From Gammaproteobacteria bacterium (GTDB lineage Bacteria > Pseudomonadota > Gammaproteobacteria > Ga0077536): 64,000 nucleotides of DNA. The stretch spans positions 207,322 to 271,321 of the forward strand of contig JAJFJQ010000062.1 in the NCBI GenBank assembly GCA_021773835.1, read 5' to 3'. Under the pieces are notes generated by a model. It had not been told where the DNA came from. It saw only the letters and a program-made list of their open reading frames with translations, and did not search any database. Positions 25,366 through 45,101 of this stretch are shown here, one piece after another. The first letter of the stretch is position 1, and each line of letters opens with the position of its first letter. The translations under genes were made by a program, and so were the position numbers.

Positions 25366-28300
25366 CTAACCATTGTGCATCGTTACCAGTAGATCGTGTG
25401 CATCGACCGTCTCGCCACGTCGAACATTCACCTGCTTGACGGTCGCGTCCAGATCGGCCCGGATCTGAGTTTCCATTTTCATCGCTTCGATGGATAGCAG
25501 CGGATCACCCTTTTTGATTTTCTGGCCCGAGGCCACTGCGACCGAAGCGATCATGCCGGGCATCGGTGCGCCGATGTGGGCCGGATTGCCGGCCTCCGCC
25601 TTAGGTCTTTCTTCCTTCACTTCCGCCCCGGACTTTGCGACACGCACGAGTCTCGGTTGTCCGTTCAGCTCGAAAAAGAGTTTTACCTCTCCGTCCTCCG
25701 GCGCCTCTGTTCGCCCCTGCAGGCCAATTAATAACCCCTTACCAGACTCGAGTTCGACCGAGATTTCTTCACCTTCGGTCATCCCGTAGAAAAATGCCGT
25801 CGTCGGCAACCTCGATACGTCGCCGTAATGACTACGGTGGGCGGCATAATCGCGAAATACCTTTGGGTACATCAAACTCGAAGCGAGATCAGTATCGCTG
25901 ACCGTGCGGCCGATCGTTTTCTCTACGTCATCGCGCAGTGCTTCTAGGTCGACCGGCGGTATGTTTGCGCCTGGCCGTCCGACGAGCGGTTGTTCACCGG
26001 CTAATACCTTCTGTTGTAGTTGCTGCGGGAATCCGTCGGGCGGGAAACCCAGCTCTCCTTTAAAAAGCGAAATTACCGATTCGGGGAAGGCAATCTCGCG
26101 TTCGGGATCAAGCACTGCGGCAGGGTCGAGATCGTTGATAACCATAAACAGTGCCATGTCGCCGACAACCTTGGATGTCGGTGTGACTTTGATAATGTCA
26201 CCGAACATTTGATTGACCTCGGCATAAGCACGCGCGACCTCGGGCCAACGTGACGCGAGTCCGATTGCGCGGGCCTGTTCGCGCAAATTCGTATACTGGC
26301 CGCCGGGCATTTCGTGACGGTAAACATCCGACGTGCCGGATCGCATATCAGCTTCGAACGGCGCGTAATATCGCCGCACACCCTCCCAATAATGTGAAGC
26401 GGCCTGCATGGACTCGAGCGGGACTTTTGGATCCCGCTCGTGACCAGCAAGTGCAACGGCTATTGCACCAAGATTTGGCTGAGAAGTGAGACCCGACATA
26501 CTGTCGAATGCCCCGTCAACGGCGTCGCAGCCCGCCGTCACAGCCGCCAACACGGCGGCACCGCCGATGCCGCTCGTATCATGCGTATGAAAGTGTACAG
26601 GGAGGCCGATTTCTTGCTTTAAGGCCGTGATTAATTCATAGGCGGCCCGAGGACGGCATAGACCGGCCATGTCCTTGATGCCGATGATGTGCGCGCCAGC
26701 CTGCTCGAGCGCTTTGGCCATGCCGATGTAGTAGTTGAGGTTGTATTTCGAGCGGCTAGTGTCGAATAAATCTCCGGTGTAGCAAATGGCGCCTTCGCAA
26801 AGGCTGCCCGATTCGCAAACCGCGTCGATTGCGACGCGCATGTTTTCGACACCATTGAGCGCGTCGAACACTCGAAATATATCGATACCGCTGGCAGCGG
26901 CTTGCTGCACGAAATACTTCACCACGTTATCGGGATAGTTTGTGTAGCCGACCGCGTTAGATGCGCGCAGCAACATTTGCAGTAGGATATTCGGCACCGC
27001 CTCACGTAACCGCGTGAGGCGCTCCCATGGATCTTCTTTAAGAAAGCGCATCGCAACATCAAATGTCGCTCCGCCCCAGCATTCAAGCGAGAATAGCTGC
27101 GGTAGCATCCGCGCATAGTATGGTGCGATTTCGACCATATCGTGTGTTCGCATGCGCGTCGCGAATAGCGATTGATGTGCGTCGCGCATCGTCGTATCAG
27201 TAAGTAACACCTGTGGTTGATCGAGCATCCATTTGCTGAAGCGTTCGGCGCCGAGCGTTCTAAATTCATCGCGCGAGCCGCGTCTCATTTCCGAATTTCG
27301 ATCATAAGACGGCCGCACAACTGATAGCGCCTGTGTCTGCGGCGGTATACGCCCTTCCATTTCCGGATTACCGTTGACAATGACTTCCCCGAGGAAGCGT
27401 AATAAGCGTGTCGCACGATCGCGACGCTTTATTATTTTGAATAATTCCGGCGTTGAGTCGATAAATCGCGTCGTATTTTCACCCGACTGGAATACTGGAT
27501 GATTGATGATGTTTTCCAGAAACTGCAGATTGCTCGACAAACCACGGATCCGGAACTCGCGCAGGGACCGATCCATACGCTTAATCGCCTCAGCGCTAGT
27601 TGGCGCCCAGGTTGTGACCTTCACGAGCAGCGAATCGTAGTATGGCGTGATGACCGCACCTGAATAGGCGGTACCGCCGTCGAGGCGAACGCCGAAACCG
27701 GATGCACTGCGATAGGCGGTTAGGCGACCATAATCCGGAATGAAGTTATTTTCCGGGTCCTCAGTCGTGACACGACATTGCAACGCATGGCCTTTTAGCT
27801 TTATGTCATTTTGGAGCGGGACTGCGCCGTCGGGCGAACCAATGCGCTCACCCTCAGTGATGCGGATCTGTGCTTTGACGATATCAATTCCGGTAACTTC
27901 TTCGGTGACCGTGTGCTCAACCTGGATCCGTGGATTAACCTCAATAAAATAATAGTTACCGCTGTCGATATCCATCAAGAATTCGACGGTTCCGGCATGC
28001 GTGTAGCTTACTGCTCTGGCCAGATTCAGCGCCGCCTCACACAAATCTGCTCGCGTTCGCTCATCTAGGTACGGCGCCGGGGCACGCTCTACGACTTTCT
28101 GATTTCGCCGTTGCACAGAGCAATCACGCTCATACAAGTGGACGAGGGACCCGTGCATGTCACCGAGGATTTGTACTTCGACGTGCCGTGCGCGGCGAAC
28201 GAGTTTCTCCAAATAAACCTCGTCGTTGCCGAACGCCGATAGCGCCTCGCGTCGCGCACTATCCATATTCGCATCGAGTTCTGACTCCGATTCGATGATG

Positions 28301-28812
28301 CGCATACCGCGACCGCCGCCGCCCCAACTTGCCTTAAGCATTAATGGATAACCAACTTGGGCGGCGAGTCGTTTTACCTCATCGCTGTCGTGCGGCAGCG
28401 GGCCTGTCGCTGGCATAATTGGTACACCTGCGTGCTCAGCGACGTCGCGAGCTGCGATCTTATTACCAAGCGTGCGCATTACCTGTGGCCGCGGTCCAAT
28501 GAACAAGATGCCCGCCGCGGCGCAAGCGTCGGCAAATTCCGGATTCTCTGACAGAAACCCGTAACCCGGATGTATGGCATCCGCACCGGCTTGCCGAGCG
28601 ATCCCGAGGATCCCGTCGATGTCGAGGTAGGCCGCTACCGGCTGCTTGCCGTCGCCGACAAGGTAACTTTCATCGGCCTTGAACCGATGCAATGCAAAGC
28701 GGTCCTCATTCGCATAAATGGCGATCGTCTGAATTCCGAGTTCCGTGGCCGCGCGCATAACGCGGATCGCGATCTCGGAACGATTAGCAACCAGGAGTCT
28801 ACGTATGCGCAT
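25366..28812 (-). CDS. pyc: Pyruvate carboxylase (single-chain)
   Basis: 1148 aa with a biotin carboxylase N-terminus, carboxyltransferase centre and C-terminal biotinyl domain containing AMKME. Confidence 0.93.
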   Translation of the reverse strand: MRIRRLLVANRSEIAIRVMRAATELGIQTIAIYANEDRFALHRFKADESYLVGDGKQPVAAYLDIDGILGIARQAGADAIHPGYGFLSENPEFADACAAAGILFIGPRPQVMRTLGNKIAARDVAEHAGVPIMPATGPLPHDSDEVKRLAAQVGYPLMLKASWGGGGRGMRIIESESELDANMDSARREALSAFGNDEVYLEKLVRRARHVEVQILGDMHGSLVHLYERDCSVQRRNQKVVERAPAPYLDERTRADLCEAALNLARAVSYTHAGTVEFLMDIDSGNYYFIEVNPRIQVEHTVTEEVTGIDIVKAQIRITEGERIGSPDGAVPLQNDIKLKGHALQCRVTTEDPENNFIPDYGRLTAYRSASGFGVRLDGGTAYSGAVITPYYDSLLVKVTTWAPTSAEAIKRMDRSLREFRIRGLSSNLQFLENIINHPVFQSGENTTRFIDSTPELFKIIKRRDRATRLLRFLGEVIVNGNPEMEGRIPPQTQALSVVRPSYDRNSEMRRGSRDEFRTLGAERFSKWMLDQPQVLLTDTTMRDAHQSLFATRMRTHDMVEIAPYYARMLPQLFSLECWGGATFDVAMRFLKEDPWERLTRLREAVPNILLQMLLRASNAVGYTNYPDNVVKYFVQQAAASGIDIFRVFDALNGVENMRVAIDAVCESGSLCEGAICYTGDLFDTSRSKYNLNYYIGMAKALEQAGAHIIGIKDMAGLCRPRAAYELITALKQEIGLPVHFHTHDTSGIGGAAVLAAVTAGCDAVDGAFDSMSGLTSQPNLGAIAVALAGHERDPKVPLESMQAASHYWEGVRRYYAPFEADMRSGTSDVYRHEMPGGQYTNLREQARAIGLASRWPEVARAYAEVNQMFGDIIKVTPTSKVVGDMALFMVINDLDPAAVLDPEREIAFPESVISLFKGELGFPPDGFPQQLQQKVLAGEQPLVGRPGANIPPVDLEALRDDVEKTIGRTVSDTDLASSLMYPKVFRDYAAHRSHYGDVSRLPTTAFFYGMTEGEEISVELESGKGLLIGLQGRTEAPEDGEVKLFFELNGQPRLVRVAKSGAEVKEERPKAEAGNPAHIGAPMPGMIASVAVASGQKIKKGDPLLSIEAMKMETQIRADLDATVKQVNVRRGETVDAHDLLVTMHNG

Positions 28813-29364: not shown

Positions 29365-29429
29365 ATAACGCATTGATTTAATTGGTGGGCGATACTGGGT
29401 TCGAACCAGTGACCCCTGCCGTGTGAAGG
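29365..29429. repeat. Partial duplicate of the tRNA-Val 3' half plus ~10 bp flank. Left att-like boundary of the island.
   Basis: ~65 bp with 2 mismatches relative to 46526-46590 (taacgcattgatttaattggtgggcgatactgggttcgaaccagtgacccctgccgtgtgaagg). Confidence 0.8.
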
Positions 29430-31133: not shown

Positions 31134-32042
31134 TTAGATCTGCTTAATCAACTCGGAACTCAGCAGCAACCGATCGAGGCGCCGTTCCAGTTCCGGCGTA
31201 GCCGGTACCATTGGCAGTCGATGCTCGTTACTTCTGATCAAACCCATCTTTTTCATCATGTACTTGATCGGGATCGGATTAGTGTCCCAGAACACCGCCT
31301 GGTTCAAGTCATACAACTCGAAGTGCAGTGCGCGCCCAGTACTGAGATCCAGACGTTGCATCGCATCACACAGCGCAATAATCTTGTCTACCGCCACGTT
31401 GCCGACAGCGTTCATTACGCCTACGGCGCCAAGCGCGAGCATCGGGAAGCTCAAGGACTCAAGTCCGACAAATATGCGGAACGAACTGCCGAAGGCGAGC
31501 AGGCAATCGCTGACGAAATCGAGATCATTTACCGCGTGTTTGATCCCGACCAGGGTTGGTACACGGGTCGCGATCTGTTCTACCGTTGCAACATCGACCG
31601 ATACTGCAGCACGCCCGGGGATGTGGTAGATCAATAGCGGTCGATCGCTGCGCTCGCCGACCGCAGCGAAATAATCAACCAGCCCTCGACGCGGTGGACG
31701 GATATAGTATGGCGTCACCACGAGTATGGCATCCGCGCCACATTCGGTAGCGTGCTCGGTCAGTTGAAACGTCTCGACGAGTGACTGCGAACCGGTTGCG
31801 GCAACGACCTGGCAGCGACCGGCAGCGACGCGCACAGCCGTACTGACCAGTTCATTGCGTTCGGCAACCGTCAGTGAGCTTGGTTCGGCAGATGTTCCAT
31901 TGACGACAATTCCGTGGCCACCTTGCTCGACTTGCAGTTCGACTAGCTGCTGGAAGCTCTCAAGGTCAACCCGACCATCGTGGAACGGGGTAACGATGGG
32001 CGTGAATGAACCGCGCAATGAGTCGTCAGTAAGTGTCAGCAT
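31134..32042 (-). CDS. DapA-family (dihydrodipicolinate synthase / N-acetylneuraminate lyase superfamily) lyase/aldolase
   Basis: 302 aa with PIVTPFHDGRVD...NGTSAEPSSLT. Confidence 0.8.
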   Translation of the reverse strand: MLTLTDDSLRGSFTPIVTPFHDGRVDLESFQQLVELQVEQGGHGIVVNGTSAEPSSLTVAERNELVSTAVRVAAGRCQVVAATGSQSLVETFQLTEHATECGADAILVVTPYYIRPPRRGLVDYFAAVGERSDRPLLIYHIPGRAAVSVDVATVEQIATRVPTLVGIKHAVNDLDFVSDCLLAFGSSFRIFVGLESLSFPMLALGAVGVMNAVGNVAVDKIIALCDAMQRLDLSTGRALHFELYDLNQAVFWDTNPIPIKYMMKKMGLIRSNEHRLPMVPATPELERRLDRLLLSSELIKQI

Positions 32043-32195
32043 AAAAGTTGCCGCCCGGGCTCGTGAATATACTTAGTATGCTAAGTATATTCACGAGATC
32101 GACCGATAGCAAGCTAAGGTGAGCAGGGCCGATATCGCGCATACGGTCGTGGCCGGGATCTGCGCGGGGAATGAGTTCGCGGGTACACTATCGTC

Positions 32196-32744
32196 ATGAG
32201 CAGGCGCAGCAGAGGCAATTCCGGGGAAACGACCGAGTCGAAGTCCGCTACGACAGTCGAGTTCTCGCTCGATCAGAGCATGGGGGCGCTCGTCCGCTTT
32301 ACTCACCGCGCTTTCCTCGAGGACCTGCAGTCACACCTCGCTACGCATGACGTAAACGCGGGCATGTGGTTCTTTCTGCGGACGCTTTGGGAAGAAGACG
32401 GCATCACCCAGCGGGAGCTGAGCCGGCGGATAGGTATCTCGGAACCAACTGCGCTGCATCAGTTGCGCAAGATGGAAAGCGCGAAGCTGCTCGAGCGCCG
32501 ACGATCGAAAACGGATCGTCGTAAATTTGACGTCGTGTTGACCGCCAAGGGCCGCAGGCTGAAACAGAAACTACTGCCGTACGCGGTCGATCTCAATGCG
32601 GACGCACTGATGGGGATTCCGAAAAGCGATGTCCAGATCGCGCGGCGCGTGCTTGCCGATATTCGCGATAACCTCAGCAAACGGCGCCAGGAACGCGATG
32701 TCGCCATCCGTAAAAAGGCTGGCCCGGGGGCTAGCAAGGACTGA
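32196..32744 (+). CDS. MarR-family transcriptional regulator
   Basis: RELSRRIGISEPTALHQLRKMESAKLLERRRSKTDRRKFDVVLTAKG. Confidence 0.75.
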   Translation: MSRRSRGNSGETTESKSATTVEFSLDQSMGALVRFTHRAFLEDLQSHLATHDVNAGMWFFLRTLWEEDGITQRELSRRIGISEPTALHQLRKMESAKLLERRRSKTDRRKFDVVLTAKGRRLKQKLLPYAVDLNADALMGIPKSDVQIARRVLADIRDNLSKRRQERDVAIRKKAGPGASKD

Positions 32745-32796: not shown

Positions 32797-33090
32797 CTAC
32801 TCTTCGATAGCGGCCAGACGCCAGTTTCTAAAAACCGGTTCGTCGGCCGGCACGATCTCAGTCCGCAGCAATGCGTAACATCCAGGGCAGAAGGCCTGTC
32901 GTAGAACAATTTCGCGTTTTGTGTAATGACTCGGATCGGCATGGACACCGGGTCCGGCGTCAGCGGCCGGGCGCACCCGTTGCAGCGCGCCTGATAATGG
33001 ATCGGTTCGCGCATTCCCAATCGTCGCTGAGCAATGCCGACACTGCACGACCCCGGCACTGTCAACTGTGAGATTGTCATCGATGTTCAT
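32797..33090 (-). CDS. Small Cys-rich subunit resembling the acetone carboxylase gamma subunit
   Basis: ~97 aa from the internal Met MNIDDNL. Two Cys pairs (CRHC...CPGC). Positioned immediately after the hydantoinase B-type gene, as in acxABC. The family call is from memory. Confidence 0.45.
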   Translation of the reverse strand: MNIDDNLTVDSAGVVQCRHCSATIGNARTDPLSGALQRVRPAADAGPGVHADPSHYTKREIVLRQAFCPGCYALLRTEIVPADEPVFRNWRLAAIEE

Positions 33091-33109
33091 GCTGCTACTC
33101 CCGTCGGTT

Positions 33110-35086
33110 TTATCCGGCTTTGCGATCTCCGGCCCGCACTTCGCGTAATTGGTTGCGCCGCGTCTGGGTAGCCGCATCGTCCAGCGTGCCGTCGGCGTCA
33201 CAAACGACACCGTAAATCATGTCCGCGGCATGGGCAGAAACACGCTGCCGATGGATGTCGTGCACGACTTCGTGTGGGTCGCGCAGTAACGGATCGCCAT
33301 AGCCGCCGCCCCCCTGCCAATGGGTGTAGTACACGTCGCCCGGATCAAGGTCTGTTTCAGCATGTGAAGGCAGCTCATCATGTTGCCCGACAATATCCTG
33401 CAGATTGCGCGGGATCCGGCCCGCGGCGAACTGCTGGTGCACATCGGTGGCGCGCACCAGTACGTCGTAGCTGTTGTTTGCGGGATATCCGCCGCACAAA
33501 CCGTGGGCCAGCGGCAGCGCTTTCCCTGGCGAGGAAACGACCAGGTGCACGCGACCGGCGGGCGAGTCATGTGGAATAAAGCAGCTCGAAGCACCAAGTC
33601 CGCCACGAAAGCGCCCAGGACCACCAGAATCCACCTCCTCACGCCGCCAGAGGTAAAGCATCGGAAAACTGAATTCGTTGATTTCTACATCCGCGATGCG
33701 GCCCATCGGAATGCAACTCTGGCCTCCGGTATCAACTCCATCGCGATCTGTGCGGGCGCCGAGGCCGCCGGACATGGAGTCGCACAGCATGGTTACGAAT
33801 GGTCCGCCGCGCTGATCCACACCTGCCAGTACGGTCAGATCCCAAGTCCCTTCGCAAACCGACATTGCGCCACGGCAATGCTGCGGATGCGTGACCAGCA
33901 TACTGGCGATAGTTTCCGACACTGCATTTTGCGTCGCCCAGGCCGAAGCAACGGAGGCTTTGCCGACGCCCGCCGGGAAAGTGCAATTGTTGATCGTACC
34001 CTGCTCGCTGATGATATTCAGGCAACGGTATATGCCGCCGGGGACCCAGGGAATGTCGTTACACAGCATGGTCAATACGATCGGCATAATGCCGCCACGC
34101 AAACCGGCGAAGGTGCAGTTAATAAAGCCCTCGACCTGCTTGTCAGTACCGGTGAAGTCGAACGTAAGGCTGTCGCCCTGTTTACTCATCTGAAGCACGA
34201 TCTTGTAGATACCGTCATCCCCGGCGCGCGCGCCGTCCTGGTGGGCCACCGCCCCCCAGGTGCCGTTCGGCAGGCTGCTCAGTTTTGCGCGGAGACGCTT
34301 TTCAGCATCCGCCATCATGCGTTTCATGACCGCCTTGACCGTGTCGGGGCCATATTTCCCGATTAACTGGTCAAGACGCTCCTGTGCAACGTTATTGGCG
34401 CCAAGCTTGGCGCGCAGATCGAGCGCGATAAGCTTCGGGACACGGGAACGACGCAGGTACATGTCCTCGATGTCCGGACGTAGCTCTCCGCCCTCTATGA
34501 TCTTGACGGGCGGTACCGGCGTCGATTCCCAAAATACGTCGCGCCCGGATACCGACCAGCTGCCGGGCGATACGCCGCCAAGGTCAACCTGATGGCACAC
34601 CGCGCCGGTCCACGCGAACAGCTTACCGTCGTGGAACAGCGGTGCGAACAAGCTCACGTCGTTTTGATGCAGTCCGCCACCAACCCAGGGGTCGTTGCAC
34701 AAAAACATATCGCCGGGCTTGATCCCGGGGCGTTCGCAGCGGTGCTCCAGAGTCCACTTAATCGCCATGTCGAGCGATGCAGCGAGTTGCGTGTTGTAAA
34801 CCCCGACCAGCACGAGATCGCCGGTTTCGTCGGCAATCGCCGCGCTGAAGTCATTGCAGTCGGTAACCACAACGGAGCCGGACATGCGCTTCAGGGCGTC
34901 ACCCATATCTTCGGTGATGGCCGCGAGGCGGTGCCGGATGACTTCGAACGTCAACGGGTCGACCGCTTCAATGGCGCGTTCGTCAATTGTATGGATCGCC
35001 AGGTTCGACGCAGCGGCAAGCAGTTCCGCCGGACTGCGTTGGACGAAATTAAAGCGTTCGGAGCCGGAAACGTGGGTGATCGTCAT
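33110..35086 (-). CDS. Hydantoinase B / oxoprolinase-family subunit (acetone-carboxylase alpha-like)
   Basis: 658 aa with DPLTFEVIRHRLAAITEDMGDALKRMSGSVVVTDCNDFSAAI. A 4 nt overlap with the upstream hydantoinase A gene. Confidence 0.88.
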   Translation of the reverse strand: MTITHVSGSERFNFVQRSPAELLAAASNLAIHTIDERAIEAVDPLTFEVIRHRLAAITEDMGDALKRMSGSVVVTDCNDFSAAIADETGDLVLVGVYNTQLAASLDMAIKWTLEHRCERPGIKPGDMFLCNDPWVGGGLHQNDVSLFAPLFHDGKLFAWTGAVCHQVDLGGVSPGSWSVSGRDVFWESTPVPPVKIIEGGELRPDIEDMYLRRSRVPKLIALDLRAKLGANNVAQERLDQLIGKYGPDTVKAVMKRMMADAEKRLRAKLSSLPNGTWGAVAHQDGARAGDDGIYKIVLQMSKQGDSLTFDFTGTDKQVEGFINCTFAGLRGGIMPIVLTMLCNDIPWVPGGIYRCLNIISEQGTINNCTFPAGVGKASVASAWATQNAVSETIASMLVTHPQHCRGAMSVCEGTWDLTVLAGVDQRGGPFVTMLCDSMSGGLGARTDRDGVDTGGQSCIPMGRIADVEINEFSFPMLYLWRREEVDSGGPGRFRGGLGASSCFIPHDSPAGRVHLVVSSPGKALPLAHGLCGGYPANNSYDVLVRATDVHQQFAAGRIPRNLQDIVGQHDELPSHAETDLDPGDVYYTHWQGGGGYGDPLLRDPHEVVHDIHRQRVSAHAADMIYGVVCDADGTLDDAATQTRRNQLREVRAGDRKAG

Positions 35087-37212
35087 GCCAGTTTCTCCTT
35101 CTCGCTTCCGTTAACGGTCGCGACGTAAGTAATTCTGAGATTACCGAGTTCGTCGACCCGTGCATCGCAACCGAACGGTATGGCAACGGTGGTCGTCGGC
35201 GCCTCAACCACGGCTGGTCCTTTCAGGGTATCGCCCGGTCCGAGATCGAGATAATCGTAAATCGCAGTGCGTTCAAATCCACGCCGTATATCCAGGAATA
35301 CGTCGCGACTACCCCGAGCTTGCGCGCTTGCAGGCTTGCGTTCTGCGTGCGGCAATTCCGGCCGTATCGGCAGGCGGCCGCGGACCCGCATGCGATATGT
35401 GATCAACTGCATGCCCGCATCCCGATAGCCGGCATCCTTACCATACAGCTCCGCATACAGTGCTTCGAACGATTGTCCGATGGAGTCGACCTTCTCGGCG
35501 TCCAGTTCCCCGGCTGGAACCGGGGTCGTTACCTCGGCCAGCTGCATGGTGTAGCGAACGTCGACCTCGCGCTCGTAGGTCACGTCCGTAAAACTTAATC
35601 CCTGCTCGTCAAGGTAAGCGCTAAGTTCCCGCTCCAGGTCGCTGAAAATGTCCTGTAGCTGTTGCGGATCCGGTGGAAAATTTTCAGGTTGCGAGCGTTC
35701 GCGGGTCAGGACGATGTCTGAGCTGGCAAGACCGTACGCCGAGAACACAGCCGCAGTTGACCCGAGCGGAACCAGTACTTCGATGACGCCAAGATCGGCC
35801 GCATAGCTTGCGCAATGCATGGGGCCTGCGCCACCGAACGCATAGAGAACGAAATCGCGCGGATCGCGGCCGCTGTTTACAACCACCTTGCGTACCAAGT
35901 CAGCAGCCTGTGCATTCTGGATTGCGTAGATGGCTGCAGCCGCATCGCTAACGCTCATGCCGAGCGGGTCAGCGATATGTTTTTTGATCGATGCTTTCGC
36001 ACTCGCGACGGATAGTGGTTTTTTGCCGCCCAGGAAGTAATCCGGATTAATGATGCCGAGCACCAGGTCCGCGTCGGTCAATGTGGGGCGCTCACCGCCC
36101 TCGTCATAGCAAGCCGGACCAGGGTGCGCGCCGGCGCTATCCGGACCGACGCGCAGGTTGCCACCCTGGTCAAGCCACGCGATCGCGCCACCGCCAGCTC
36201 CAATGGTATGCACGTCGACCATGGAACTCGAAATCAGATACTGATTGATGACCACTGTATTGGTCGAGACAGGCTTGCCGTCCACCAACAAGCCAACCAG
36301 AAATGTTGTGCCGCCGATATCGGTCGAGATTACGTTGTCATGGTTAAGGATTCGGCCCAGATTCGCGCAACCGACGAGGCCGCCGGTAAGCACCGAACCA
36401 AGCGTTGTGACGGCATGACGAGGTGCCTCGCGAGCGCGAACGCAGCCGCCAGAACCTTGCATCACAAGTAGCGAGCCGTCAAAGCCACGCCCACGCAACT
36501 CGTCTTCCAGCGGGTACAAGTAGCCACGGAGGATAGGCGCGACCTGGGTATTAACTATCGTGGTGGCGCTGCGCGGAAATTCACGAATGCGCGGACTGAC
36601 ATCTGAAGATAGTGCGACGTAGAGGTCGGGCGCTATTTCACCAATAATGTCGCGGACTCGATGTTCGTGCGCCGGATTGCTGAACGACCAGAGAAAAGAC
36701 ACCGCTAGCGCTTCGACGCCTTTATCGATCAGCCGCCGGGTCGCCTGGCGAACGCCGCCCTCATCAAGACACACAATTTCCGCCCCTTTGTAGTCGATCC
36801 GCTCGTTGATTTCCTCGATCAATTGACGCGGCACCAGGGCTGGCGGTTTGCTGGTGTTGGCCATGTTCTGGATTTCTTCTGCATCCAGGCCAGCATAGCG
36901 TCCCTCAACATTCATAATCGAAATAGAATCGGCGTGCCCCTGAGTGGTCATGAATCCGACTTTGGACACATTGCCCGTGACCAGTGCGTTAAGCGTGGAA
37001 GTTGTACCGTGCACGATATAGTCCGTATTGCCGAGCAACTCTGGCGTGCTGATCCCGACTACTGCGGCCAGTTCGTCGACGACATTCAGGAACCCGAGCG
37101 AAAAATCGTGCGGTGTAGACGGTGATTTTGCTGCGAACAGGATGCCCGCTTCATCGGCCAGGAAACCATCCGTAAAGGTACCCCCGGTATCGATACCCAT
37201 AACATATGCCAT
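35083..37212 (-). CDS. Hydantoinase A / oxoprolinase-family subunit (acetone-carboxylase beta-like)
   Basis: 709 aa with the N-terminus MAYVMGIDTGGTFTDGF and ASKHA-fold ATP-binding motifs. Confidence 0.88.
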   Translation of the reverse strand: MAYVMGIDTGGTFTDGFLADEAGILFAAKSPSTPHDFSLGFLNVVDELAAVVGISTPELLGNTDYIVHGTTSTLNALVTGNVSKVGFMTTQGHADSISIMNVEGRYAGLDAEEIQNMANTSKPPALVPRQLIEEINERIDYKGAEIVCLDEGGVRQATRRLIDKGVEALAVSFLWSFSNPAHEHRVRDIIGEIAPDLYVALSSDVSPRIREFPRSATTIVNTQVAPILRGYLYPLEDELRGRGFDGSLLVMQGSGGCVRAREAPRHAVTTLGSVLTGGLVGCANLGRILNHDNVISTDIGGTTFLVGLLVDGKPVSTNTVVINQYLISSSMVDVHTIGAGGGAIAWLDQGGNLRVGPDSAGAHPGPACYDEGGERPTLTDADLVLGIINPDYFLGGKKPLSVASAKASIKKHIADPLGMSVSDAAAAIYAIQNAQAADLVRKVVVNSGRDPRDFVLYAFGGAGPMHCASYAADLGVIEVLVPLGSTAAVFSAYGLASSDIVLTRERSQPENFPPDPQQLQDIFSDLERELSAYLDEQGLSFTDVTYEREVDVRYTMQLAEVTTPVPAGELDAEKVDSIGQSFEALYAELYGKDAGYRDAGMQLITYRMRVRGRLPIRPELPHAERKPASAQARGSRDVFLDIRRGFERTAIYDYLDLGPGDTLKGPAVVEAPTTTVAIPFGCDARVDELGNLRITYVATVNGSEKEKLA

Positions 37213-37288: not shown

Positions 37289-38776
37289 TCAATCGAGGCG
37301 CACATGAATGTTCTTGACTTGCGTGTAGGACAACAATTCTGACAACCCCTCTTCGCGGCCGAGCCCGGATTTCTTGTAGCCCCCGAACTCAGCGCCGATG
37401 AAATGGCTGGTCATATGGTTGATCCAGACGTAGCCCGATTCGATGCGGCTTGCGAGGCGGTGAGCGCGTTGCAGGTCGCGGGTCCAGATTGAGGCTGTTA
37501 GACCGTAATCGACCGAGTTAATTTGGGTCACCAGTTCGTCTTCGTCACTCCACGGAATTACCGACAGAACGGGACCAAATACTTCCTCGCGAAACAGCCG
37601 CATCGCGGGCGTGACATCAGCGAATACCGTCGGTTCGACGAACCAACCCTTTGATAAAGTCTGGTCCGCAGACGGCCTGCCGCCGCATAACAAGCGGGCG
37701 CCCTCTTCTTTGGCCCCCTCGATGAAGGCCATAACCTTGTTGAATTGAGGTTCCGAAATAAGGCTGCCCATCGTTGTGTTCATATTCGTGGGGTCACCGC
37801 ATCGGTGAAGCTTCGGTATCAGTTCCGTAATTCCGGCACAGACTTCATCGTAAACTGAGCTGTGCGCGAAACAGCGCGAGGTTGAGCCACAGGACTGCCC
37901 CGCCCAGGTGAAGTTCATACCACCGACTGCGCCGGTGACGGCGCGCTCTAGATCAGCATCCGGGCATATGACCAGAGGATTCTTACCTCCAAGTTCGAGT
38001 GTTACCGGAATGATCTTCTCGGCAGCGGCACGCAATATGTTGCTACCAGTCTGGACCGAACCGATGAGTGCTACTTTGCGCACCAATGGGTGGTCGACAA
38101 GTGCCGCGCCGCATTCGCTGCCACCGGTGACGATGTTCACCACGCCTGGGGGCAACGTGTCGGCTATTATTTCGGCTAAGCGATACGAAGACAGCGGTGC
38201 CTGCGCTGGAGGTTTCATCACGACCGTGTTGCCGGCAGCGATTGCGGGCGCGAGCTTACCCGCGAGAAACATCAAGGGGTGGTTATAGGCCACGATGCGG
38301 GCAACGACGCCCAGCGGTTCGCGCAGCGAATAATTCAGCACGCCAGATCCCATGGGCAACGTGTCGCCTTTGAGTTCGTGGACCAGGCCGGCGTAGTAGT
38401 CGATTTGTGCTGCAGCGATGACCGCGTCCCTGGTCATCTCGCGCACCGGATTACCGCAGTTGATAGCATCGATTAAAGCGAATTCGTCGGCCGAAGCACG
38501 TATTTTCGCGGCTAGTTCACGCATAAAGGTGGCGCGCGCACCCGGTGCCGTATCCCGCCAGGTTGCGAACGCCGTGTGCGCAGCCTGCACGGCACGATCG
38601 ACGTCCGTGGCGTTAGCAACGGCGCAGTTACCGAGTTCGTCCTGGTTGGCCGGGTTAACGGTTGCTGCATATCCACCATCCGGCCGGTGCCAGGCGTTCC
38701 CGAAAAAAAGATCGCGAGTGCGGGGTAAAACGCCGTACTTTTCCGACGGATTGATGATGGCTCGATTTTCAGTCAT
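37289..38776 (-). CDS. NAD(P)-dependent aldehyde dehydrogenase
   Basis: 495 aa with LELGGKNP and a catalytic Cys region. Confidence 0.9.
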   Translation of the reverse strand: MTENRAIINPSEKYGVLPRTRDLFFGNAWHRPDGGYAATVNPANQDELGNCAVANATDVDRAVQAAHTAFATWRDTAPGARATFMRELAAKIRASADEFALIDAINCGNPVREMTRDAVIAAAQIDYYAGLVHELKGDTLPMGSGVLNYSLREPLGVVARIVAYNHPLMFLAGKLAPAIAAGNTVVMKPPAQAPLSSYRLAEIIADTLPPGVVNIVTGGSECGAALVDHPLVRKVALIGSVQTGSNILRAAAEKIIPVTLELGGKNPLVICPDADLERAVTGAVGGMNFTWAGQSCGSTSRCFAHSSVYDEVCAGITELIPKLHRCGDPTNMNTTMGSLISEPQFNKVMAFIEGAKEEGARLLCGGRPSADQTLSKGWFVEPTVFADVTPAMRLFREEVFGPVLSVIPWSDEDELVTQINSVDYGLTASIWTRDLQRAHRLASRIESGYVWINHMTSHFIGAEFGGYKKSGLGREEGLSELLSYTQVKNIHVRLD

Positions 38777-39643: not shown

Positions 39644-39931
39644 TGGCGTCGGGTTGATAACTCCGCAGCGTCAGTGGACCGGGCGAAAATGACGAGAATA
39701 TCCTGCAGCCGAACCGCCCTAAGGTGCCAGCGTTAACGCTCACGGGTTTGATACAGCCTAGCGCAAAATACTTAGTAAGCAAAGTATTTATTCAGAGCGA
39801 GTTCAGACTGACGCGGACGATGCGCATTACTTGAAAGAAGTGGTCGCCGAGCGCAGGAAAGTGGTTTCCGGCTGCGCAATCAGCGGCATCCTAGCAGGGG
39901 CAACAGCGGTGAAGATGAACTTAGGCGAGCC

Positions 39932-40549
39932 CTAGTTGCTACCTGGCCGCTTCATCTCGAAGGTTTCACCGAGACGGGCGTAAGTGGCGCCACCCATCCG
40001 CATTATCGGCGCTGCTTCCACGGTGTCGAAACGGTCATCCTCGGTCAGAAGGACGTCTTGGACATGAACTGCGACCACGCGTCCGACAACCAACGCGGAA
40101 TGGCGTTCACCGGGCTGACTGGGTGGTAGATCGACGATACGGACGACTCTGCATTCTAGATTGGCGGCCGCCGCTTTGACGCGCGGAACCCCGACTGTGA
40201 CGCCTGGAGCGCACTCGAGACCTGCAAGTTCAAACTCGCTGACACCGGGCGCCGCAGTAGCAGAGGTGACATTCACAGCTTCGCGTAGGGCGTAGGAAGC
40301 AAAATTGGCGACAAATTCAGGTACCACTCTCACGTTGGCGAGCGTGTCCTTTTCTTCCCGGTCTGCGGCACCGTTGACGGAGAATGCGACCATTGGAGGT
40401 GAGGTCGAGATCGCGTTGAAGTAGGAAAACGGTGCAAGGTTTGGTCCGCCAAGCGCATTGACCGTACTAATCCAGCCGATTGGTCGCGGCGCAACAATCG
40501 CGTTCACAATCGATGGACGAAAATGCTCGTCGGTGCTTTTCATGAACAT
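39932..40549 (-). CDS. Flavin reductase (HpaC/NADH:FMN oxidoreductase-like domain)
   Basis: 205 aa with IVAPRPIGWISTVNALGGPNLAPFSYFNAISTSPPMVAFSV. Confidence 0.85.
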   Translation of the reverse strand: MFMKSTDEHFRPSIVNAIVAPRPIGWISTVNALGGPNLAPFSYFNAISTSPPMVAFSVNGAADREEKDTLANVRVVPEFVANFASYALREAVNVTSATAAPGVSEFELAGLECAPGVTVGVPRVKAAAANLECRVVRIVDLPPSQPGERHSALVVGRVVAVHVQDVLLTEDDRFDTVEAAPIMRMGGATYARLGETFEMKRPGSN

Positions 40550-40666
40550 GGCAGTTCCCTTGGCTGGCCTCAGACTTTAGTCCGGGTGAACGAGCAGGCC
40601 CGTTCTTCCGTAGCTATACAATTGACGAGAGTATGCTAAATTACTTAGCAAGCAAAGCATTATGCC

Positions 40667-41242
40667 TTGGCATCGATGACGACTAATCAGGACGTTCCGC
40701 GAATTCCTTTCGAGGATTTGCGTGAAGATATTGCCGATTCTCTCCGCGCCAAGTTCGAGCGCCTGGGTTACCTCGGTGAATTCTTCTCCGCAACGGCGCA
40801 CCAGCCTGACGCGCTGATGGCGTTCATACTTTTTACAGACGCAGCGAAGGCTGAACTCGATCTAAAATCGGTCGAATTGATCGCACTGACGGTTGCGACC
40901 ATGAAGGCCGTAGCCTACGAAAAGAATCAGCACGAACGCCTTAGCGTCAAGTCCGGTTTCGGACGTAAATGGGTGGCCGCCGTAGAAGCACTCGCACCTG
41001 AACGGCATGACACACTTAGCGAGAGCGAAAAGCGCATGCAGCGTTTCGTGATCGAAGCCGTACGTGCAGATGGCAAAAATATTACGCTATGGCGGCGCGC
41101 GCTCTGCGATGACCTTGGCCACGTCAAGACCATTGCCGTGATGATGGTTATGGCGCGTTATACGAGCCACGCCTTATTGGTCAACGCCCTAGACATTGGT
41201 GCTCCGGTACCTTCCATATTTGACAATACTGAAGGTGGCTGA
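40667..41242 (+). CDS. Carboxymuconolactone decarboxylase/AhpD-like family protein
   Basis: All-helical ~190 aa protein with a CxxxxH-like element (ALCDDLGH). The assignment is tentative. Confidence 0.45.
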   Translation: MASMTTNQDVPRIPFEDLREDIADSLRAKFERLGYLGEFFSATAHQPDALMAFILFTDAAKAELDLKSVELIALTVATMKAVAYEKNQHERLSVKSGFGRKWVAAVEALAPERHDTLSESEKRMQRFVIEAVRADGKNITLWRRALCDDLGHVKTIAVMMVMARYTSHALLVNALDIGAPVPSIFDNTEGG

Positions 41243-41269: not shown

Positions 41270-42391
41270 ATGAACAACGCTGAACCAGTTATCGCGGATG
41301 AGAGCGGGAAACCGCTTGGGACTGTCACGCCCGACGCTGCGCGCCCGGGCGAGGATTGGCCACCATTGACAATCCGGCGCGCTGTCATCGAACGGGAGAT
41401 TGAGCGTCTGTGCGATATTTCAGTGCCCGAAAACGGTCGGCGTCAGGTGCAGTTTATCCACCCATCGGCTAATCCAGCAACACCCGGGCTCAATCCGGGA
41501 GTGCGTGTGATGTTGGAGGTGTTGCTGCCAGGTGAGCAAACCGCGCTCGGCCGGCACAATTCGACACAGGTCAATTTTTGTATTCGCGGGGCCGGTACGA
41601 CCGTGGTCGGCGCACGGCAGGTCCATTTCTCGCAATACGACGTGTGGAACATACCTTCTTACTCGCCTTACAGACATGTCAACGATTCCAAAGACGTGCA
41701 GGTTAGGCTGACCTATTCGAACGCGCCGCTATTGGAGATGTTACGGGTCCATTTGGTCGAAGAGAATCCATTGCCCGGCGCGAGTCTCGAATTGGCAGCG
41801 GCATCCACACCAAGTGCGAATAACCGTGGTCAGAGCCCATTCGGCACCTTCGCGATCGGTGACGATGGTGCACACCTGATGCCGTACGAGACGCTGATCA
41901 GTCCGTCACAGGTCGATTCACGCGCATTGCACTGGCCGTGGGCGGTGGTACAGGAAAAACTCGACCAACTGGCCGGGCTAGGCAGCGAGTACACTGGCCG
42001 GCGCCTGTATCTCATGTATAACCCGATGACCGGCCGCTCCAACGGCACCACGCCCAACTTTTTCGCAACCATTACGATCAGACCACCGAAGATTATCGAC
42101 CGGCCGCATCGCCACGTGTCTTCGGCAATCAACTATTATTTTCGGGGAAGCGGCTACAGCGTAGTCGAAGGTCAGCGTTACGAGTGGGAGGCTGGCGACC
42201 TGATGGTGTCTGCGCCGGGCTGGGCCGTGCATAACCATGCCTCGTATGACGAACCGGTTTACGAGCTGACGGTGCAGGATCAACCACTGCACATCATGAT
42301 GGAATCGCTGTTGTGGCAGGAAAGTATGAAGGAGCCCGCCGCGATTCTGGGCTCGGCGGTGGGTTTTGCGACCAACCGCGCAGCAGGCTGA
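41270..42391 (+). CDS. Bicupin protein, gentisate 1,2-dioxygenase-like
   Basis: 373 aa with two cupin modules (LLPGEQTALGRHNSTQ... and RPHRHVSSAINYYFRGSGYSVVEGQ). Confidence 0.55.
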   Translation: MNNAEPVIADESGKPLGTVTPDAARPGEDWPPLTIRRAVIEREIERLCDISVPENGRRQVQFIHPSANPATPGLNPGVRVMLEVLLPGEQTALGRHNSTQVNFCIRGAGTTVVGARQVHFSQYDVWNIPSYSPYRHVNDSKDVQVRLTYSNAPLLEMLRVHLVEENPLPGASLELAAASTPSANNRGQSPFGTFAIGDDGAHLMPYETLISPSQVDSRALHWPWAVVQEKLDQLAGLGSEYTGRRLYLMYNPMTGRSNGTTPNFFATITIRPPKIIDRPHRHVSSAINYYFRGSGYSVVEGQRYEWEAGDLMVSAPGWAVHNHASYDEPVYELTVQDQPLHIMMESLLWQESMKEPAAILGSAVGFATNRAAG

Positions 42392-42779: not shown

Positions 42780-43445
42780 ATGTTGCCGATCGAATGCAGA
42801 GAAGCTCGCGCGAAGCTGGTGGGGCTTGCTGACGAGTTGGCGCAGCAGTTTCTCGACGAACTCGCGGCGAGTATCAAAAAGGGTGTCATCAAAACGACAC
42901 CGTTTGCCTATCTACGTGGATTGGTTAAATGTGCACGCGTCGGCACGTATGCCCCGGAGGGTGCGCTGACGATAGCGCGTCAACGACAATGTAAGGCCGC
43001 GGTCGACCTGGCATTAACGCGCGTAGTGCCGCTGGTACCGCTTATCCGATTGAGCCGGTCGACCCAGACAGCGCGTTGGTCAAGAGATTGCTCAACATCC
43101 GACAGCGCTCGGGTAGGTCAAACCACACAACGAATTAGTGACGTCGCCGACCTGTACGGCGGACGCTCGTGCGTGCGTATGTACGAAAAACGGCGATATC
43201 CGCAAGGCAATAGGAACGCACGGTTTAGAGCGAATTTATTGGATCGCATCGGCCACAACAAGACGTTGCGAGTATTAGTTAAAGTCAATAGGTTGGTGCC
43301 CTGGGCTCCAATTGAGCAAAAAGTAACCACCTGTCGAATATCGACACTTAACCGTGGATCGACGATTTTTTATTCCGATGGCGTATTTGGTAGTGACGGC
43401 TTAGTCGGTATTCGTTGGACCAGAGAGAAAATAACAAATCGTTAG
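42780..43445 (+). CDS. Hypothetical island protein (no recognisable family)
   Basis: 221 aa tracked ORF. Only the N-terminal ~90 aa look protein-like (ARAKLVGLADELAQQFLDELAASIKKG...). Confidence 0.3.
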   Translation: MLPIECREARAKLVGLADELAQQFLDELAASIKKGVIKTTPFAYLRGLVKCARVGTYAPEGALTIARQRQCKAAVDLALTRVVPLVPLIRLSRSTQTARWSRDCSTSDSARVGQTTQRISDVADLYGGRSCVRMYEKRRYPQGNRNARFRANLLDRIGHNKTLRVLVKVNRLVPWAPIEQKVTTCRISTLNRGSTIFYSDGVFGSDGLVGIRWTREKITNR

Positions 43446-44306
43446 ACGGACATCTTAAAGTCAATAGGTTGATGCCGCCGGCATCAAGATAGTGACTCTA
43501 GAATTCGTAGATGGGAGGAGTACCCGCCGGCGCGCCGGGCCCACGAGCATTGGCCTAGGGCCAATGCAACGTGTTTGTGTCTACGACACGCTGCAGTCGC
43601 CGACGTTGAGCGAAGGTCCGCGTCACTACACAAGCGAAGCGCAGTAGTGACGCGGACGAAATCGGTGCCTTGGGCCTTGCCCGCTGGGCCGATTCCTGAA
43701 CTGTGCACGAATGCCCCGCGAATTACGGTGGGAACCCCGCACGTCGGTGACTTGATTTATCCGGATGCCAGCTTCGCGCCCGTCTAGACTCATCCGGCGT
43801 GAACGATTTTATCCGTGGCCACTACGGCAAAGTGGCAACCAAGGCATCGTCGGACCGTGTAACCGATGCATCGGCGCAAGCCGCGGTCCATCTTCAAGCA
43901 AATGACAAACCAATCGGAGCGTCCATCCTCGCCGGCAGTTGCCAGCGATTCAATCATCGAGCGTCCGTTTAGCGAATGTTGCTTAGTGCTCATTTTTTTT
44001 AATGCAGTTAGCCGCTGCAATCTTAAAAGGAGGTGTTTAACCATTGTCGAAACTCACCCGGAAACGGGATCGTTGGATTGCGCGAGAACTTCTTCAACAG
44101 AGGAAAGCTCGCGTTGCCTGTAACCAGGCGCTTTTAGGTTGACTGGGACTGGTGCCCCATGACTGCTCCGCTGTAGCGGTCTTGCCAGCTTCGGCTGTCA
44201 GGAAAGTCGGAAACACTTACCGAAAATCGGAAGCACTGTGAGAAGCCTGAACTACCAACTGAAAATGCTGTGTCGGCATTCCCGCGAAGGGAGTTATGCG
44301 ACGCAG

Positions 44307-45101
44307 ATGAATCGCGAACGCATGCTGACTTTGATCGCGAATGAATTGCACGAGCTCGGATATCGCAAGATGAGCGAGCGTTCCTTGAAACCGAAACATA
44401 TCGATGCGTTAGTGAAGCATTGGTTTGATCAGCGCTTGTCGATCGGAACCATTAAGAACCGCATGGCCGTGATCCGCTGGTGGGCGCACAAGGCCGATAA
44501 GCAGAATGTCGTTGCACGTAGCAACGATCACTATGGGATCTCGGATCGACGATTCATTGCCGATGAATCGAAGGCTAAGTCGGTTACCGAATCGCAATTG
44601 GAAAAGATCGTAGATGCGCACGTCCGCATGAGCCTCGAACTTCAGCAAGCTTTCGGATTGCGTCGAGAAGAGGCGATGAAGATTCAACCGAGCTTCGCCG
44701 ACCGCGGTGACCACATCGTTCTGAAACCAAGTTGGACGAAAGGCGGTAAGGATCGTGCGATCCCGATCCGGACAGAAGCGCAGCGAGACGTGCTCGATCG
44801 TGCGCGGCAACTCGCCGGTCTTGGCTCGTTAATACCGAGCAATCGAAATTATGTCCAGCAGATGCGGATCTACGAGCGCGACACCGTGCGCGCTGGTCTG
44901 TCGAATATGCATGGACTACGGCACGCCTACGCACAGAATCGATACGAAGAATTAACTGGTTGGAAATGCCCCGCGGCCGGCGGCCCGGCAAAGGCATCGC
45001 TGATGTTTGAGCAACGGGTAGTCGATAGAGAGATGCGGCTAACGATCAGCCGTGAATTGGGCCATGAGCGCGAGCAAATCACGGCAGCCTATTGCGGGTA
45101 G
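44307..45101 (+). CDS. Tyrosine recombinase-family protein (second recombinase of the island)
   Basis: C-terminal HGLRHAYAQNRY...GHEREQITAAY motif (His-x-x-Arg ... Tyr). Start chosen at MNRERML with AAGGGAG upstream. The tracked ORF begins at 44238. Confidence 0.6.
   Translation: MNRERMLTLIANELHELGYRKMSERSLKPKHIDALVKHWFDQRLSIGTIKNRMAVIRWWAHKADKQNVVARSNDHYGISDRRFIADESKAKSVTESQLEKIVDAHVRMSLELQQAFGLRREEAMKIQPSFADRGDHIVLKPSWTKGGKDRAIPIRTEAQRDVLDRARQLAGLGSLIPSNRNYVQQMRIYERDTVRAGLSNMHGLRHAYAQNRYEELTGWKCPAAGGPAKASLMFEQRVVDREMRLTISRELGHEREQITAAYCG

Follow-up and report, generated by a model that had tools for sequence, protein, structure and literature searches.

A 64,000-nucleotide (nt) stretch of DNA from a Gammaproteobacteria bacterium (assembly GCA_021773835.1, contig JAJFJQ010000062.1, positions 207,322 to 271,321), analysed whole and called the window here, carries three adjacent genes on its minus strand at 32797-37212. 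This triad encodes proteins resembling the hydantoinase subunits HyuA and HyuB, followed by a small cysteine-rich protein:

35083-37212, minus strand: HyuA-like alpha subunit, 709 amino acids (aa), identified by Pfam; the ATP-binding, ASKHA-type kinase subunit
33110-35086, minus strand: HyuB-like beta subunit, 658 aa, identified by Pfam; the metal-containing coupling or hydrolysis subunit
32797-33090, minus strand: gamma-like subunit, 97 aa; a putative Cys4 zinc ribbon

The HyuB ATG overlaps the HyuA stop codon by 4 nt (ATGA). The longest reading of the small open reading frame (ORF) starts at a GTG at 33210 (32797-33210, 137 aa). The conserved reading begins with an ATG at 33090, which lies 19 nt past the HyuB stop and is preceded by a GGGAG ribosome-binding site; the resulting length of 97 aa was also obtained by an independent gene call on the same DNA. 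An initial annotation, made from sequence alone, had correctly described the sizes and order of these genes and the two cysteine pairs of the small protein. It had also likened the locus to acxABC rather than to the two-gene hydAB pattern, and the A-B-small order does agree with the former (PMC5214803). The best reading is that the products of the three genes form a single alpha-beta-gamma enzyme that is a member of the hydantoinase/ketone-carboxylase superfamily. On the same reading it belongs to a branch distinct from acetone carboxylase (Acx), from acetophenone carboxylase (Apc), and from the two-subunit lactamases, hydantoinases, and oxoprolinases; most members of this branch carry gamma downstream of HyuB or fused to it.

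The small protein contains two CxxC pairs (C17, C20, C68, and C71). All four cysteines are invariant across a 31-member family (30 homologues, 93-103 aa), which has a mean column identity of 59% and a conserved motif, RQaFCPgC...TEIVPaDEP. Measured on this alignment, the conservation is far beyond chance. Against the Pfam family Acetone_carb_G (PF08882) the protein scores 18.4 bits (E 0.0026) and does not reach the gathering score of 21, and NCBIfam holds no match for it; 12 of the 31 family members do match PF08882, the best at 6.5e-6. When the family profile was compared with all Protein Data Bank (PDB) sequences, the sole match below E 0.8 was Apc gamma (5l9w_C, E 0.0042). Both CxxC pairs align, with C17, C20, C68, and C71 corresponding to C22, C25, C75, and C78 of Apc gamma (PMC5214803). 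An AlphaFold2 model of the small protein (pLDDT 82.6) gave five significant Foldseek matches in the PDB, all of them gamma chains (Apc 5l9w_C; Acx 5m45_C, 5svb, and 5svc), with E-values of 3-7e-4, probability 1.0, and TM scores of 0.62-0.67; the next match has an E-value above 1.

Gene fusions tell the same story. An exhaustive HyuB search of 50%-identity representatives was surveyed for fusions in the best 150 of 12,862 clusters (E <=1e-3). Most of these 150 (103) are 700-800 aa long, 80 carry a C-terminal domain that matches the gamma hidden Markov model (HMM), and CxxC...CxxC tails are found in most of the remaining representatives inspected. One HyuB-gamma fusion (P0045) is 76% identical to the window HyuB; further examples are P0153, P0154, P0156, P0160, and P0169, and a single protein of 1430 aa (P0161) is a HyuA-HyuB-gamma triple fusion. 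Several fused gamma tails score 27-44 bits, above the Pfam gathering score. Such fusions argue strongly for an association between gamma and HyuB. The initial annotation had looked to the gamma-family HMM for a verdict on the small ORF. Despite the sub-threshold score, the Pfam matches of relatives, the profile, the fold, and the fusions all agree, and sequence and structural modelling settle that the small ORF, though divergent, is genuinely homologous to the gamma subunit of acetone and acetophenone carboxylases. Public records list it as "hypothetical protein", and the large subunits as "hydantoinase/oxoprolinase family protein".

In Pfam, HyuA matches Hydant_A_N (5.8e-37), Hydantoinase_A (4.6e-78), and Hydant_A_C (4.2e-22), and HyuB matches Hydantoinase_B (2e-125). 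HyuA contains three ATP motifs (GIDTGGT, residues 6-12; DIGGTT, 298-303; and GAHPGP, 361-366), together with ERIDYKG (137-143), a motif similar to R/KERiDsxG at the Apc-alpha interface (PMC5214803, PMC8453981). In HyuB, the metal tetrad D79/H140/D143/H165 aligns with D41/H99/D102/H124 of the caprolactamase subunit CapB (PMC8453981). Judged by their motifs, both subunits thus display the ATP motifs and the Asp-His-Asp-His site by which Weidenweber et al. (2017) recognize the superfamily. Active-site residues were also considered as a means to distinguish carboxylase from hydrolase, and were set aside because the metal tetrad and ATP motifs are conserved superfamily-wide (PMC8453981); Weidenweber et al. 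likewise found no signature motifs that separate the two (PMC5214803). There is a single HyuA gene on the genomic island described below, and tblastn scans of the fetched loci found no second one.

Placement within the superfamily comes from a ranking of scores and identities. In the PDB, alpha is matched best by Apc alpha (5l9w_B, 3.6e-117, 396 bits), then by N-methylhydantoinase (NMHase, 362 bits), CapA (355), and Acx (315). For beta, CapB (188 bits, 2.2e-54) and Apc beta (184 bits, 4.4e-53) nearly tie, followed by NMHase (164) and by Acx, whose match in two fragments (129 bits, 1.9e-36) is the weakest of these references. Among NCBIfam models, alpha scores 526 bits with CapA (cut-off 1000) and 437 with ApcC (cut-off 1500), and beta scores 233 with CapB (cut-off 1000) and 228 with ApcD (cut-off 1500); every equivalog cut-off is missed by about half or more. 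The window HyuB is 29% identical to CapB, 28% to NMHase, 27% to Apc beta, and 22-31%, over fragments, to Acx, and the characterized references are at most about 35% identical to any of the 150 nearest HyuB representatives. The initial annotation would have been undone by a small ORF that is no gamma homologue combined with large subunits that cluster firmly within ordinary 5-oxoprolinases or hydantoinases. Neither holds: the small ORF is such a homologue, and the large subunits, with the cut-offs missed and identities of 22-31%, fall outside both groups and outside the caprolactamases. Thus, by these scores, the triad family appears as a radiation of its own, roughly equidistant from the Apc and hydantoinase (Hyd) branches and farthest from Acx.

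Weidenweber et al. classify these enzymes by subunit set, gene order, and subunit length (PMC5214803). On those terms the triad makes a fourth pattern: Acx-like order; no alpha' or epsilon subunit; a beta subunit of intermediate length (658 aa); and the shortest gamma (97 aa). The initial annotation had remarked that the subunits are shorter than in known carboxylases, and indeed HyuB and gamma measure 776 and about 165-168 aa in Acx, and 684 and 129 aa in Apc.

Apc is the closest relative in several respects: it supplies the best PDB match for alpha, the best match for gamma by both profile and fold, and one side of the near-tie for beta; it shares the Cys4 zinc-ribbon gamma and the Asp-His-Asp-His site in beta; and it too is tied to a short-chain dehydrogenase/reductase (SDR) and to aromatic catabolism. 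However, Apc has an alpha' paralogue and an epsilon subunit, both of which the triad lacks; its genes run alpha'-gamma-alpha-beta(-epsilon) (apcABCD(E)) instead of A-B-gamma; its gamma is longer and its beta just 27% identical; the 1500-bit ApcC and ApcD cut-offs are missed; and no benzoylacetate-CoA ligase gene adjoins the triad. A long C-terminal beta arm that embraces gamma, as in Apc, was sought and is mostly absent, with about 21 residues beyond the aligned region as opposed to about 57 in Apc beta.

AcxABC of Xanthobacter autotrophicus (5M45/5SVB) resembles the triad in having three subunits, a gamma gene downstream of the HyuB-like gene, and a single HyuA-type ATP-binding subunit. It differs as the most distant reference, with a HyuB-like subunit of 776 aa (range about 720-776), a gamma of about 165-168 aa with an N-terminal extension, and a different metabolic neighbourhood. 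Acx also has a sigma-54 regulator, AcxR. The regulator that adjoins the triad is instead of the MarR family, which upholds the initial annotation in finding no AcxR-type activator here; none was seen among the scanned window ORFs of at least 150 aa, a scan that left aside a few long ORFs far from the island. Finally, the two-subunit or fused Hyd enzymes (CapAB, OplAB, N-methylhydantoinase, and 5-oxoprolinase; 6YRA, 7HK5) share the Pfam domains, ATP motifs, and metal tetrad, and give the highest NCBIfam scores. Unlike the triad, they have no gamma and a beta of about 580 aa, some 80 aa shorter; identity is 28-29%, their 1000-bit cut-offs are missed, and their pathways contain enzymes for amine handling, of which there are none here.

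A search with the gamma alignment, covering one genome per species, found 32 loci, and 40 loci, the window included, were compared. HyuA-HyuB-gamma order occurs in 39 of the 40, from Actinobacteria, Proteobacteria, and haloarchaea; the fortieth (L004) is a collapsed low-coverage contig with the same gene order. Carriers include Nonomuraea, Pseudonocardia, Amycolatopsis, Streptomyces, Saccharopolyspora, Nocardia, Microbacterium, and Nocardioides among the Actinobacteria, and Mesorhizobium, Labrys, Xanthobacteraceae, Ottowia, and Burkholderiaceae among the Proteobacteria. The closest triad loci are in metagenome-assembled genomes (MAGs) assigned to Gammaproteobacteria or simply to "Proteobacteria", with HyuB 84-85% identical in the gammaproteobacterial ones. 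At 67% identity or more, HyuB relatives fill more than 120 90%-identity clusters, all generically named. The triad is a large, horizontally spread family and is not peculiar to the window's island. No published study of it was found in the literature searched, and, as far as sequence surveys go, the gamma-bearing radiation beyond Acx and Apc is large and unexplored.

Several partner genes recur across the 40 loci: an aldehyde dehydrogenase (ALDH) in 32; an SDR in 27; a class II aldolase-fold protein in 20; an IclR regulator in 19; a 3-hydroxybenzoate-6-hydroxylase-like (3HB6H-like) flavoprotein in 18; a bicupin resembling gentisate 1,2-dioxygenase (GDO-like) in 12; an FAA-family hydrolase in 12; and a mycothiol-type maleylpyruvate isomerase (MDMPI) in 11. 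The actinobacterial operon comprises genes for the GDO-like protein, FAA hydrolase, MDMPI, 3HB6H-like protein, ALDH, HyuA, HyuB, gamma, SDR, and Aldolase_II; in Nonomuraea all ten form one compact cluster, several of them overlapping or only a few bases apart. The gammaproteobacterial relatives assemble an equivalent lower pathway from non-homologous parts: Rieske alpha and beta subunits, a flavin reductase, a bicupin, and a GST. Two non-homologous lower pathways stand beside one conserved upper module, which suggests that this module feeds a gentisate-type route with an aromatic acid.

Other contexts diverge, which suggests that the substrate range may not be uniform. In three Mesorhizobium loci (L017, L020, and L023) and one from Burkholderia diffusa (L046), with HyuB 70-71% identical, the triad has no ALDH; its neighbours are genes for Peptidase_M20, an MFS transporter, and an amino-acid-type ABC transporter, and among these loci GntR, kynureninase-like, and TrpA/TrpB-like genes occur only in Mesorhizobium L020 and L023. 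Labrys has an NMT1-type ABC transporter with luciferase-like and acyl-CoA-dehydrogenase-like monooxygenases, Ottowia has TRAP transporters, and another locus (L048) has a luciferase-like monooxygenase, an esterase-type alpha/beta hydrolase, two SDRs, and an ALDH. Aconitase, family III CoA-transferase, and HMG-CoA-lyase-like genes lie by the triad in Microbacterium-type loci (L003, L019, and L040), and citrate synthase does so in Burkholderia (L046) and Cupriavidus (L047); enzymes of citrate/citramalate chemistry thus recur beside it. A plasmid of the haloarchaeon Natronosalvus halobius (L036, 4960-9276) encodes HyuA (694 aa), HyuB (650 aa), and gamma (93 aa), at 43, 42, and 36% identity. Thiolase and acyl-CoA dehydrogenase genes adjoin this triad, and PGAP names its small gene "acetone carboxylase subunit gamma". 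Protein searches of plasmids returned only distant haloarchaeal, Rhodococcus, and Mycobacterium relatives, and no near-identical DNA was found on plasmids. In sister clades, R. opacus pCP105 has the order SDR-HyuA-HyuB-SDR-acyl-CoA ligase, and M. branderi has HyuB-gamma/HyuA among P450 genes with a 2,4'-dihydroxyacetophenone-dioxygenase-family gene.

In the window, the operon order is SDR-ALDH-HyuA-HyuB-gamma, and further catabolic genes lie on either side:

38837-39619/39643, minus strand: SDR-family oxidoreductase, first gene of the operon, 260-268 aa (adh_short_C2, 3.8e-63), 260 aa by independent gene call
37289-38776, minus strand: NAD(P)-dependent ALDH directly upstream of HyuA, 495 aa (Aldedh, 1.2e-156)
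39932-40549, minus strand: flavin reductase, 205 aa (Flavin_Reduct, 8.5e-24), upstream of the operon on the same strand
32196-32744, plus strand: MarR-family regulator (MarR, 1.1e-11), convergent with gamma and divergent from the aldolase gene
31134-32042, minus strand: DHDPS-family (class I, pyruvate-dependent) aldolase, 302 aa (DHDPS, 2.8e-68)
40667-41242, plus strand: CMD-like protein, 191 aa (weak Pfam CMD match, 4.7e-4, below cut-off)
41270-42391, plus strand: bicupin dioxygenase, remotely like gentisate/5-aminosalicylate dioxygenases, 373 aa (Cupin_2 in two stretches)

The ALDH reaches no NCBIfam equivalog cut-off (best, betaine-aldehyde dehydrogenase, 454 versus 593 bits), and the DHDPS-family aldolase scores 296 bits with TIGR02313 (HpaI-NOT-DapA), below the cut-off of 396.7. 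The bicupin scores 88 bits with MabB and 64 with gentisate 1,2-dioxygenase, both far below cut-off; its best PDB match is gentisate 1,2-dioxygenase (3bu7, 6.5e-18). It was rejected as an orthologue of the actinobacterial GDO-like protein (only 29% identity over 109 aa), as was the CMD-like protein as an orthologue of MDMPI (no similarity). Three of the gammaproteobacterial relatives (L005, L006, and L037) conserve the flavin reductase and have MarR homologues of 53-56% identity, and one (L005) has a 63% identical homologue of the CMD-like protein.

What reaction does the triad catalyse? The initial annotation had left carboxylase, lactamase, and hydrolase open; a carboxylase is now favoured, and the choice is narrowed only partly. 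Most likely, the triad activates a ketone, less likely a lactam, within an aromatic degradation route. We give about an even chance to the more specific proposal that it is an ATP-dependent carboxylase of minimal alpha-beta-gamma make-up whose substrate is an aryl or alkyl ketone. Here, the HyuA-like alpha subunit would bind ATP and phosphorylate an enolizable carbonyl; the metal site of the HyuB-like beta subunit would process the activated intermediate; and the 97-aa gamma zinc ribbon would dock on beta. Acx activates ketone and bicarbonate sequentially (PMC5214803). By analogy with this enzyme, also devoid of alpha' and epsilon, a carboxylase of the triad's composition would activate both substrates in sequence on its single alpha. 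Using ATP and bicarbonate, it would carboxylate a ketone to a beta-keto acid; the ketone is probably an aryl methyl ketone that the SDR either produces or uses. From this product, an aromatic acid destined for a gentisate-type ring-cleavage pathway would arise through the SDR and the ALDH, joined in Actinobacteria by the class II aldolase-fold enzyme. One balanced though speculative scheme would run from aryl methyl ketone to aroylacetate (HyuABgamma), beta-hydroxy acid (SDR), aryl aldehyde (aldolase-fold enzyme), aryl acid (ALDH), and finally gentisate. Candidate substrates were drawn up (3'-hydroxy-, 2'-hydroxy-, and 2'-aminoacetophenone, dioxindole/isatin, 4-hydroxy-2-quinolone, hydroxyphthalate, acetol, and diacetyl), and none is favoured by the sequence.

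Several lines of evidence favour a carboxylase. First, gamma is known only from carboxylases, having been reported in the literature consulted for just two carboxylase types and being absent from all Hyd enzymes (PMC5214803). Second, the SDR is a constant partner. Third, the R. opacus pCP105 sister locus repeats the dehydrogenase-carboxylase-CoA ligase (ped-apc-bal) logic of the ethylbenzene pathway. Fourth, sister-clade contexts pair the enzyme with P450 and dihydroxyacetophenone-dioxygenase-family genes (M. branderi) or with monooxygenase and hydrolase genes (L048). Fifth, no amine-handling enzyme is conserved, and in particular the core contains neither an aminotransferase nor a deaminase such as the caprolactam pathway uses once the lactam has been opened. 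Sixth, Apc alpha is the best PDB match for alpha. Removal of the acetyl side chain from aryl ketones is known from the Hpe and Acv hydroxyacetophenone pathways, which use a kinase, a biotin carboxylase, and a phosphatase (PMC9618137). These aerobic bacterial routes pass, by carboxylation, through an aroylacetate to a benzoate. However, a dikinase and a biotin-dependent carboxylase do the work there, enzymes with no relation at all to the triad; the steps that follow are CoA-dependent, and the pathways feed protocatechuate rather than gentisate.

A number of observations weigh against ketone carboxylation. The gamma subunit is regarded as structural and sits at a distance from the active sites (PMC5214803), so its presence is no proof of carboxylation. 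The NCBIfam scores favour caprolactamase over Apc for both large subunits, if marginally. The Rieske, MarR, flavin-reductase, and SDR set of the closest relatives appears to resemble indole-3-acetate (iac) clusters, which would fit an oxindole-type lactam. The contexts in Mesorhizobium and Burkholderia, which look like metabolism of amides, amino acids, or tryptophan metabolites, misfit an aromatic ketone. The roles of the ALDH and the aldolase-fold enzyme after a beta-keto acid are not chemically obvious: acetate-releasing retro-aldol cleavage of a free beta-hydroxy acid is unfavourable, a chemically weak step, and the nearest solved relatives of the aldolase-fold protein are a dioxygenase and decarboxylases (pyruvic oxime dioxygenase, pyridine-dicarboxylate decarboxylase, and NovR). 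Finally, no ring hydroxylase accompanies the bicupin, flavin reductase, and aldolase of the island, which suggests that the lower pathway is incomplete or host-dependent there.

A bolder version of the carboxylase proposal is doubtful as a whole. In it, the triad would serve as prototype for a third class of ATP-dependent, biotin-independent ketone carboxylases, minimal in composition (alpha-beta-short gamma) and working within a CoA-independent module. The other members of the module would be an ALDH, an SDR that reduces the beta-keto acid, and a class II aldolase-fold protein acting as lyase, decarboxylase, or oxygenase. This module would strip the acetyl group from hydroxy- or amino-acetophenones and pass the resulting benzoate to gentisate-type cleavage, and would have spread horizontally between Actinobacteria and Proteobacteria, in the present case on a tRNA-Val island.

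The strongest rival, possible but less probable than the ketone carboxylase, is an ATP-dependent lactam or cyclic-amide hydrolase that happens to carry gamma. It would open a ring-fused or unsaturated lactam (of the oxindole, dioxindole, or 4-hydroxy-2-quinolone type), and the ALDH and SDR would turn the side chain into anthranilate- or salicylate-type acids for a gentisate or 5-hydroxyanthranilate-type pathway. Caprolactamase models are the best in NCBIfam for both alpha and beta, and CapB heads the PDB matches for beta, yet all of the equivalog cut-offs are missed by about half or more. A hydantoinase-like gamma-lactamase has been characterized in anaerobic indoleacetate degradation, but all characterized hydrolases of the family lack the gamma subunit (PMC5214803). 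Gene contexts likewise point both ways: the gammaproteobacterial MAG relatives have an AndAd-like Rieske beta subunit along with MarR, flavin reductase, and SDR; the bicupin has 5-aminosalicylate dioxygenase as its best, if weak, NCBIfam match; and Peptidase_M20 accompanies the triad in Mesorhizobium and Burkholderia, as do kynureninase-like and TrpA/TrpB-like genes in Mesorhizobium. However, the M20 and kynureninase genes occur in only two to four of the 40 loci and lie several kilobases (kb) away, the conserved core has no aminotransferase or deaminase, and the sister-clade contexts suggest ketones.

Less probable again is some other ATP-dependent transformation of an enolizable carbonyl, new to the superfamily, for example one that forms a stable enol phosphate or activates a phenol or 1,3-dicarbonyl; gamma-bearing enzymes would then be functionally heterogeneous. 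The nearest 150 representative clusters are all uncharacterized (32-69% identical to the query), transporters vary by locus (sugar-, amino-acid-, and NMT1-type ABC, TRAP, and MFS), and some neighbours, such as citrate synthase and aconitase, are odd. Nevertheless, nothing positively argues for a new chemistry, which is the less parsimonious choice when two chemistries are already known in the family.

It is very unlikely that the triad is a genuine carboxylase of acetone or another small aliphatic ketone, orthologous to AcxABC. The A-B-gamma order is that of acxABC, and the PGAP label extends to distant haloarchaeal gamma homologues; but Acx is the most distant reference (129 bits, 22-31% identity over fragments), the triad beta and gamma are about 118 and 70 aa shorter, no AcxR was seen, and the neighbourhood indicates aromatic catabolism rather than acetoacetate activation. 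An ordinary two-subunit hydantoinase or 5-oxoprolinase beside an unrelated or spurious small ORF, as the sub-threshold Pfam score (18.4 versus 21 bits), the lack of an NCBIfam match, and the "hypothetical protein" label might suggest, is scarcely credible and is refuted by the fusion and conservation data: the small gene keeps its place across phyla in 39 of 40 loci, its four cysteines do not vary, most of the nearest representatives have its domain joined to HyuB in one reading frame, its predicted fold matches gamma subunits only, and the beta subunit is about 80 aa longer than that of Hyd enzymes.

The function of gamma-bearing members of the superfamily has so far been defined only by Acx and Apc, which are complex or specialized enzymes, whereas a very large set (drawn from 12,862 representative HyuB clusters at E <=1e-3) is uncharacterized. 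The parts are of known kinds and the sequences already public; the three-subunit nature of the triad family is unannotated. Its conserved SDR/ALDH/gentisate-type neighbourhood, and its presence in cultured Rhodococcus, Amycolatopsis, Nocardia, Labrys, and Mesorhizobium, make the family directly testable. A carboxylase would offer a simpler scaffold for biotin-free fixation of CO2 onto ketones, and a new aerobic route for aryl-ketone catabolism. A lactamase would overturn the rule that gamma marks carboxylases.

The catabolic genes of the window may be controlled together through three copies of an 18-nt palindromic motif:

32060-32097: perfect 17-nt inverted repeat, operator-like, between the marR and aldolase genes, with the core TACTTAGCATACTAAGTA at 32070-32087
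39769-39786: second operator-like site, TACTTTGCTTACTAAGTA, two mismatches from the core, about 150 base pairs upstream of the SDR start
40642-40659: third, weaker operator-like site, TGCTTTGCTTGCTAAGTA, between the flavin reductase (minus) and CMD-like/bicupin (plus) genes

The inverted repeat overlaps a promoter-like site (32112-32084), and a match to the core with two mismatches arose in none of 100 shuffles. The position of all three copies in promoter regions makes the catabolic genes of the island look like one regulon. The motif is probably the operator of the adjacent MarR-family protein, the candidate regulator. It is absent from the related loci.

The initial annotation had called the triad island cargo. 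This description is borne out by insertion at a tRNA 3' end, flanking direct repeats, and an adjacent tyrosine integrase:

29366-29429: distal direct repeat of 64 nt, a displaced tRNA-Val 3' end with 97% identity to 46528-46591
42780-43445: 221-aa ORF with no family match, between the cargo and the integrases
44238-45101: second integrase-like gene, inside the island (Phage_int_SAM_2 and Integrase_1)
45455-46543, plus strand: tyrosine integrase (Pfam Phage_integrase, 4.1e-35), ending two bases from the tRNA
46528-46591, minus strand: proximal direct repeat, covering the 3' part of tRNA-Val(cac)
46545-46619, minus strand: tRNA-Val(cac), which with the proximal repeat makes up the integration site

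The island spans 17.2 kb and has a GC content of 0.565, as against 0.542 for the window beyond it. The housekeeping genes for pyruvate carboxylase, gltX, and tRNA-Ala are located outside the island.

Just outside the island lie genes for a beta-class carbonic anhydrase (22763-23416) and a SulP/STAS permease (23451-25097); the pyruvate carboxylase gene (25366-28812) is adjacent, on the opposite strand. This group may be a bicarbonate-supply arrangement. Elsewhere in the window, a 1769-aa ORF with a GTG start (126-5435) has no Pfam match at E <=1e-5. Between tRNA-Ala (49039-49114) and tRNA-Glu (53834-53909), a cluster at 49302-53592 encodes a molybdopterin oxidoreductase (923 aa), a 4Fe-4S dicluster protein, and an NrfD-like membrane subunit.

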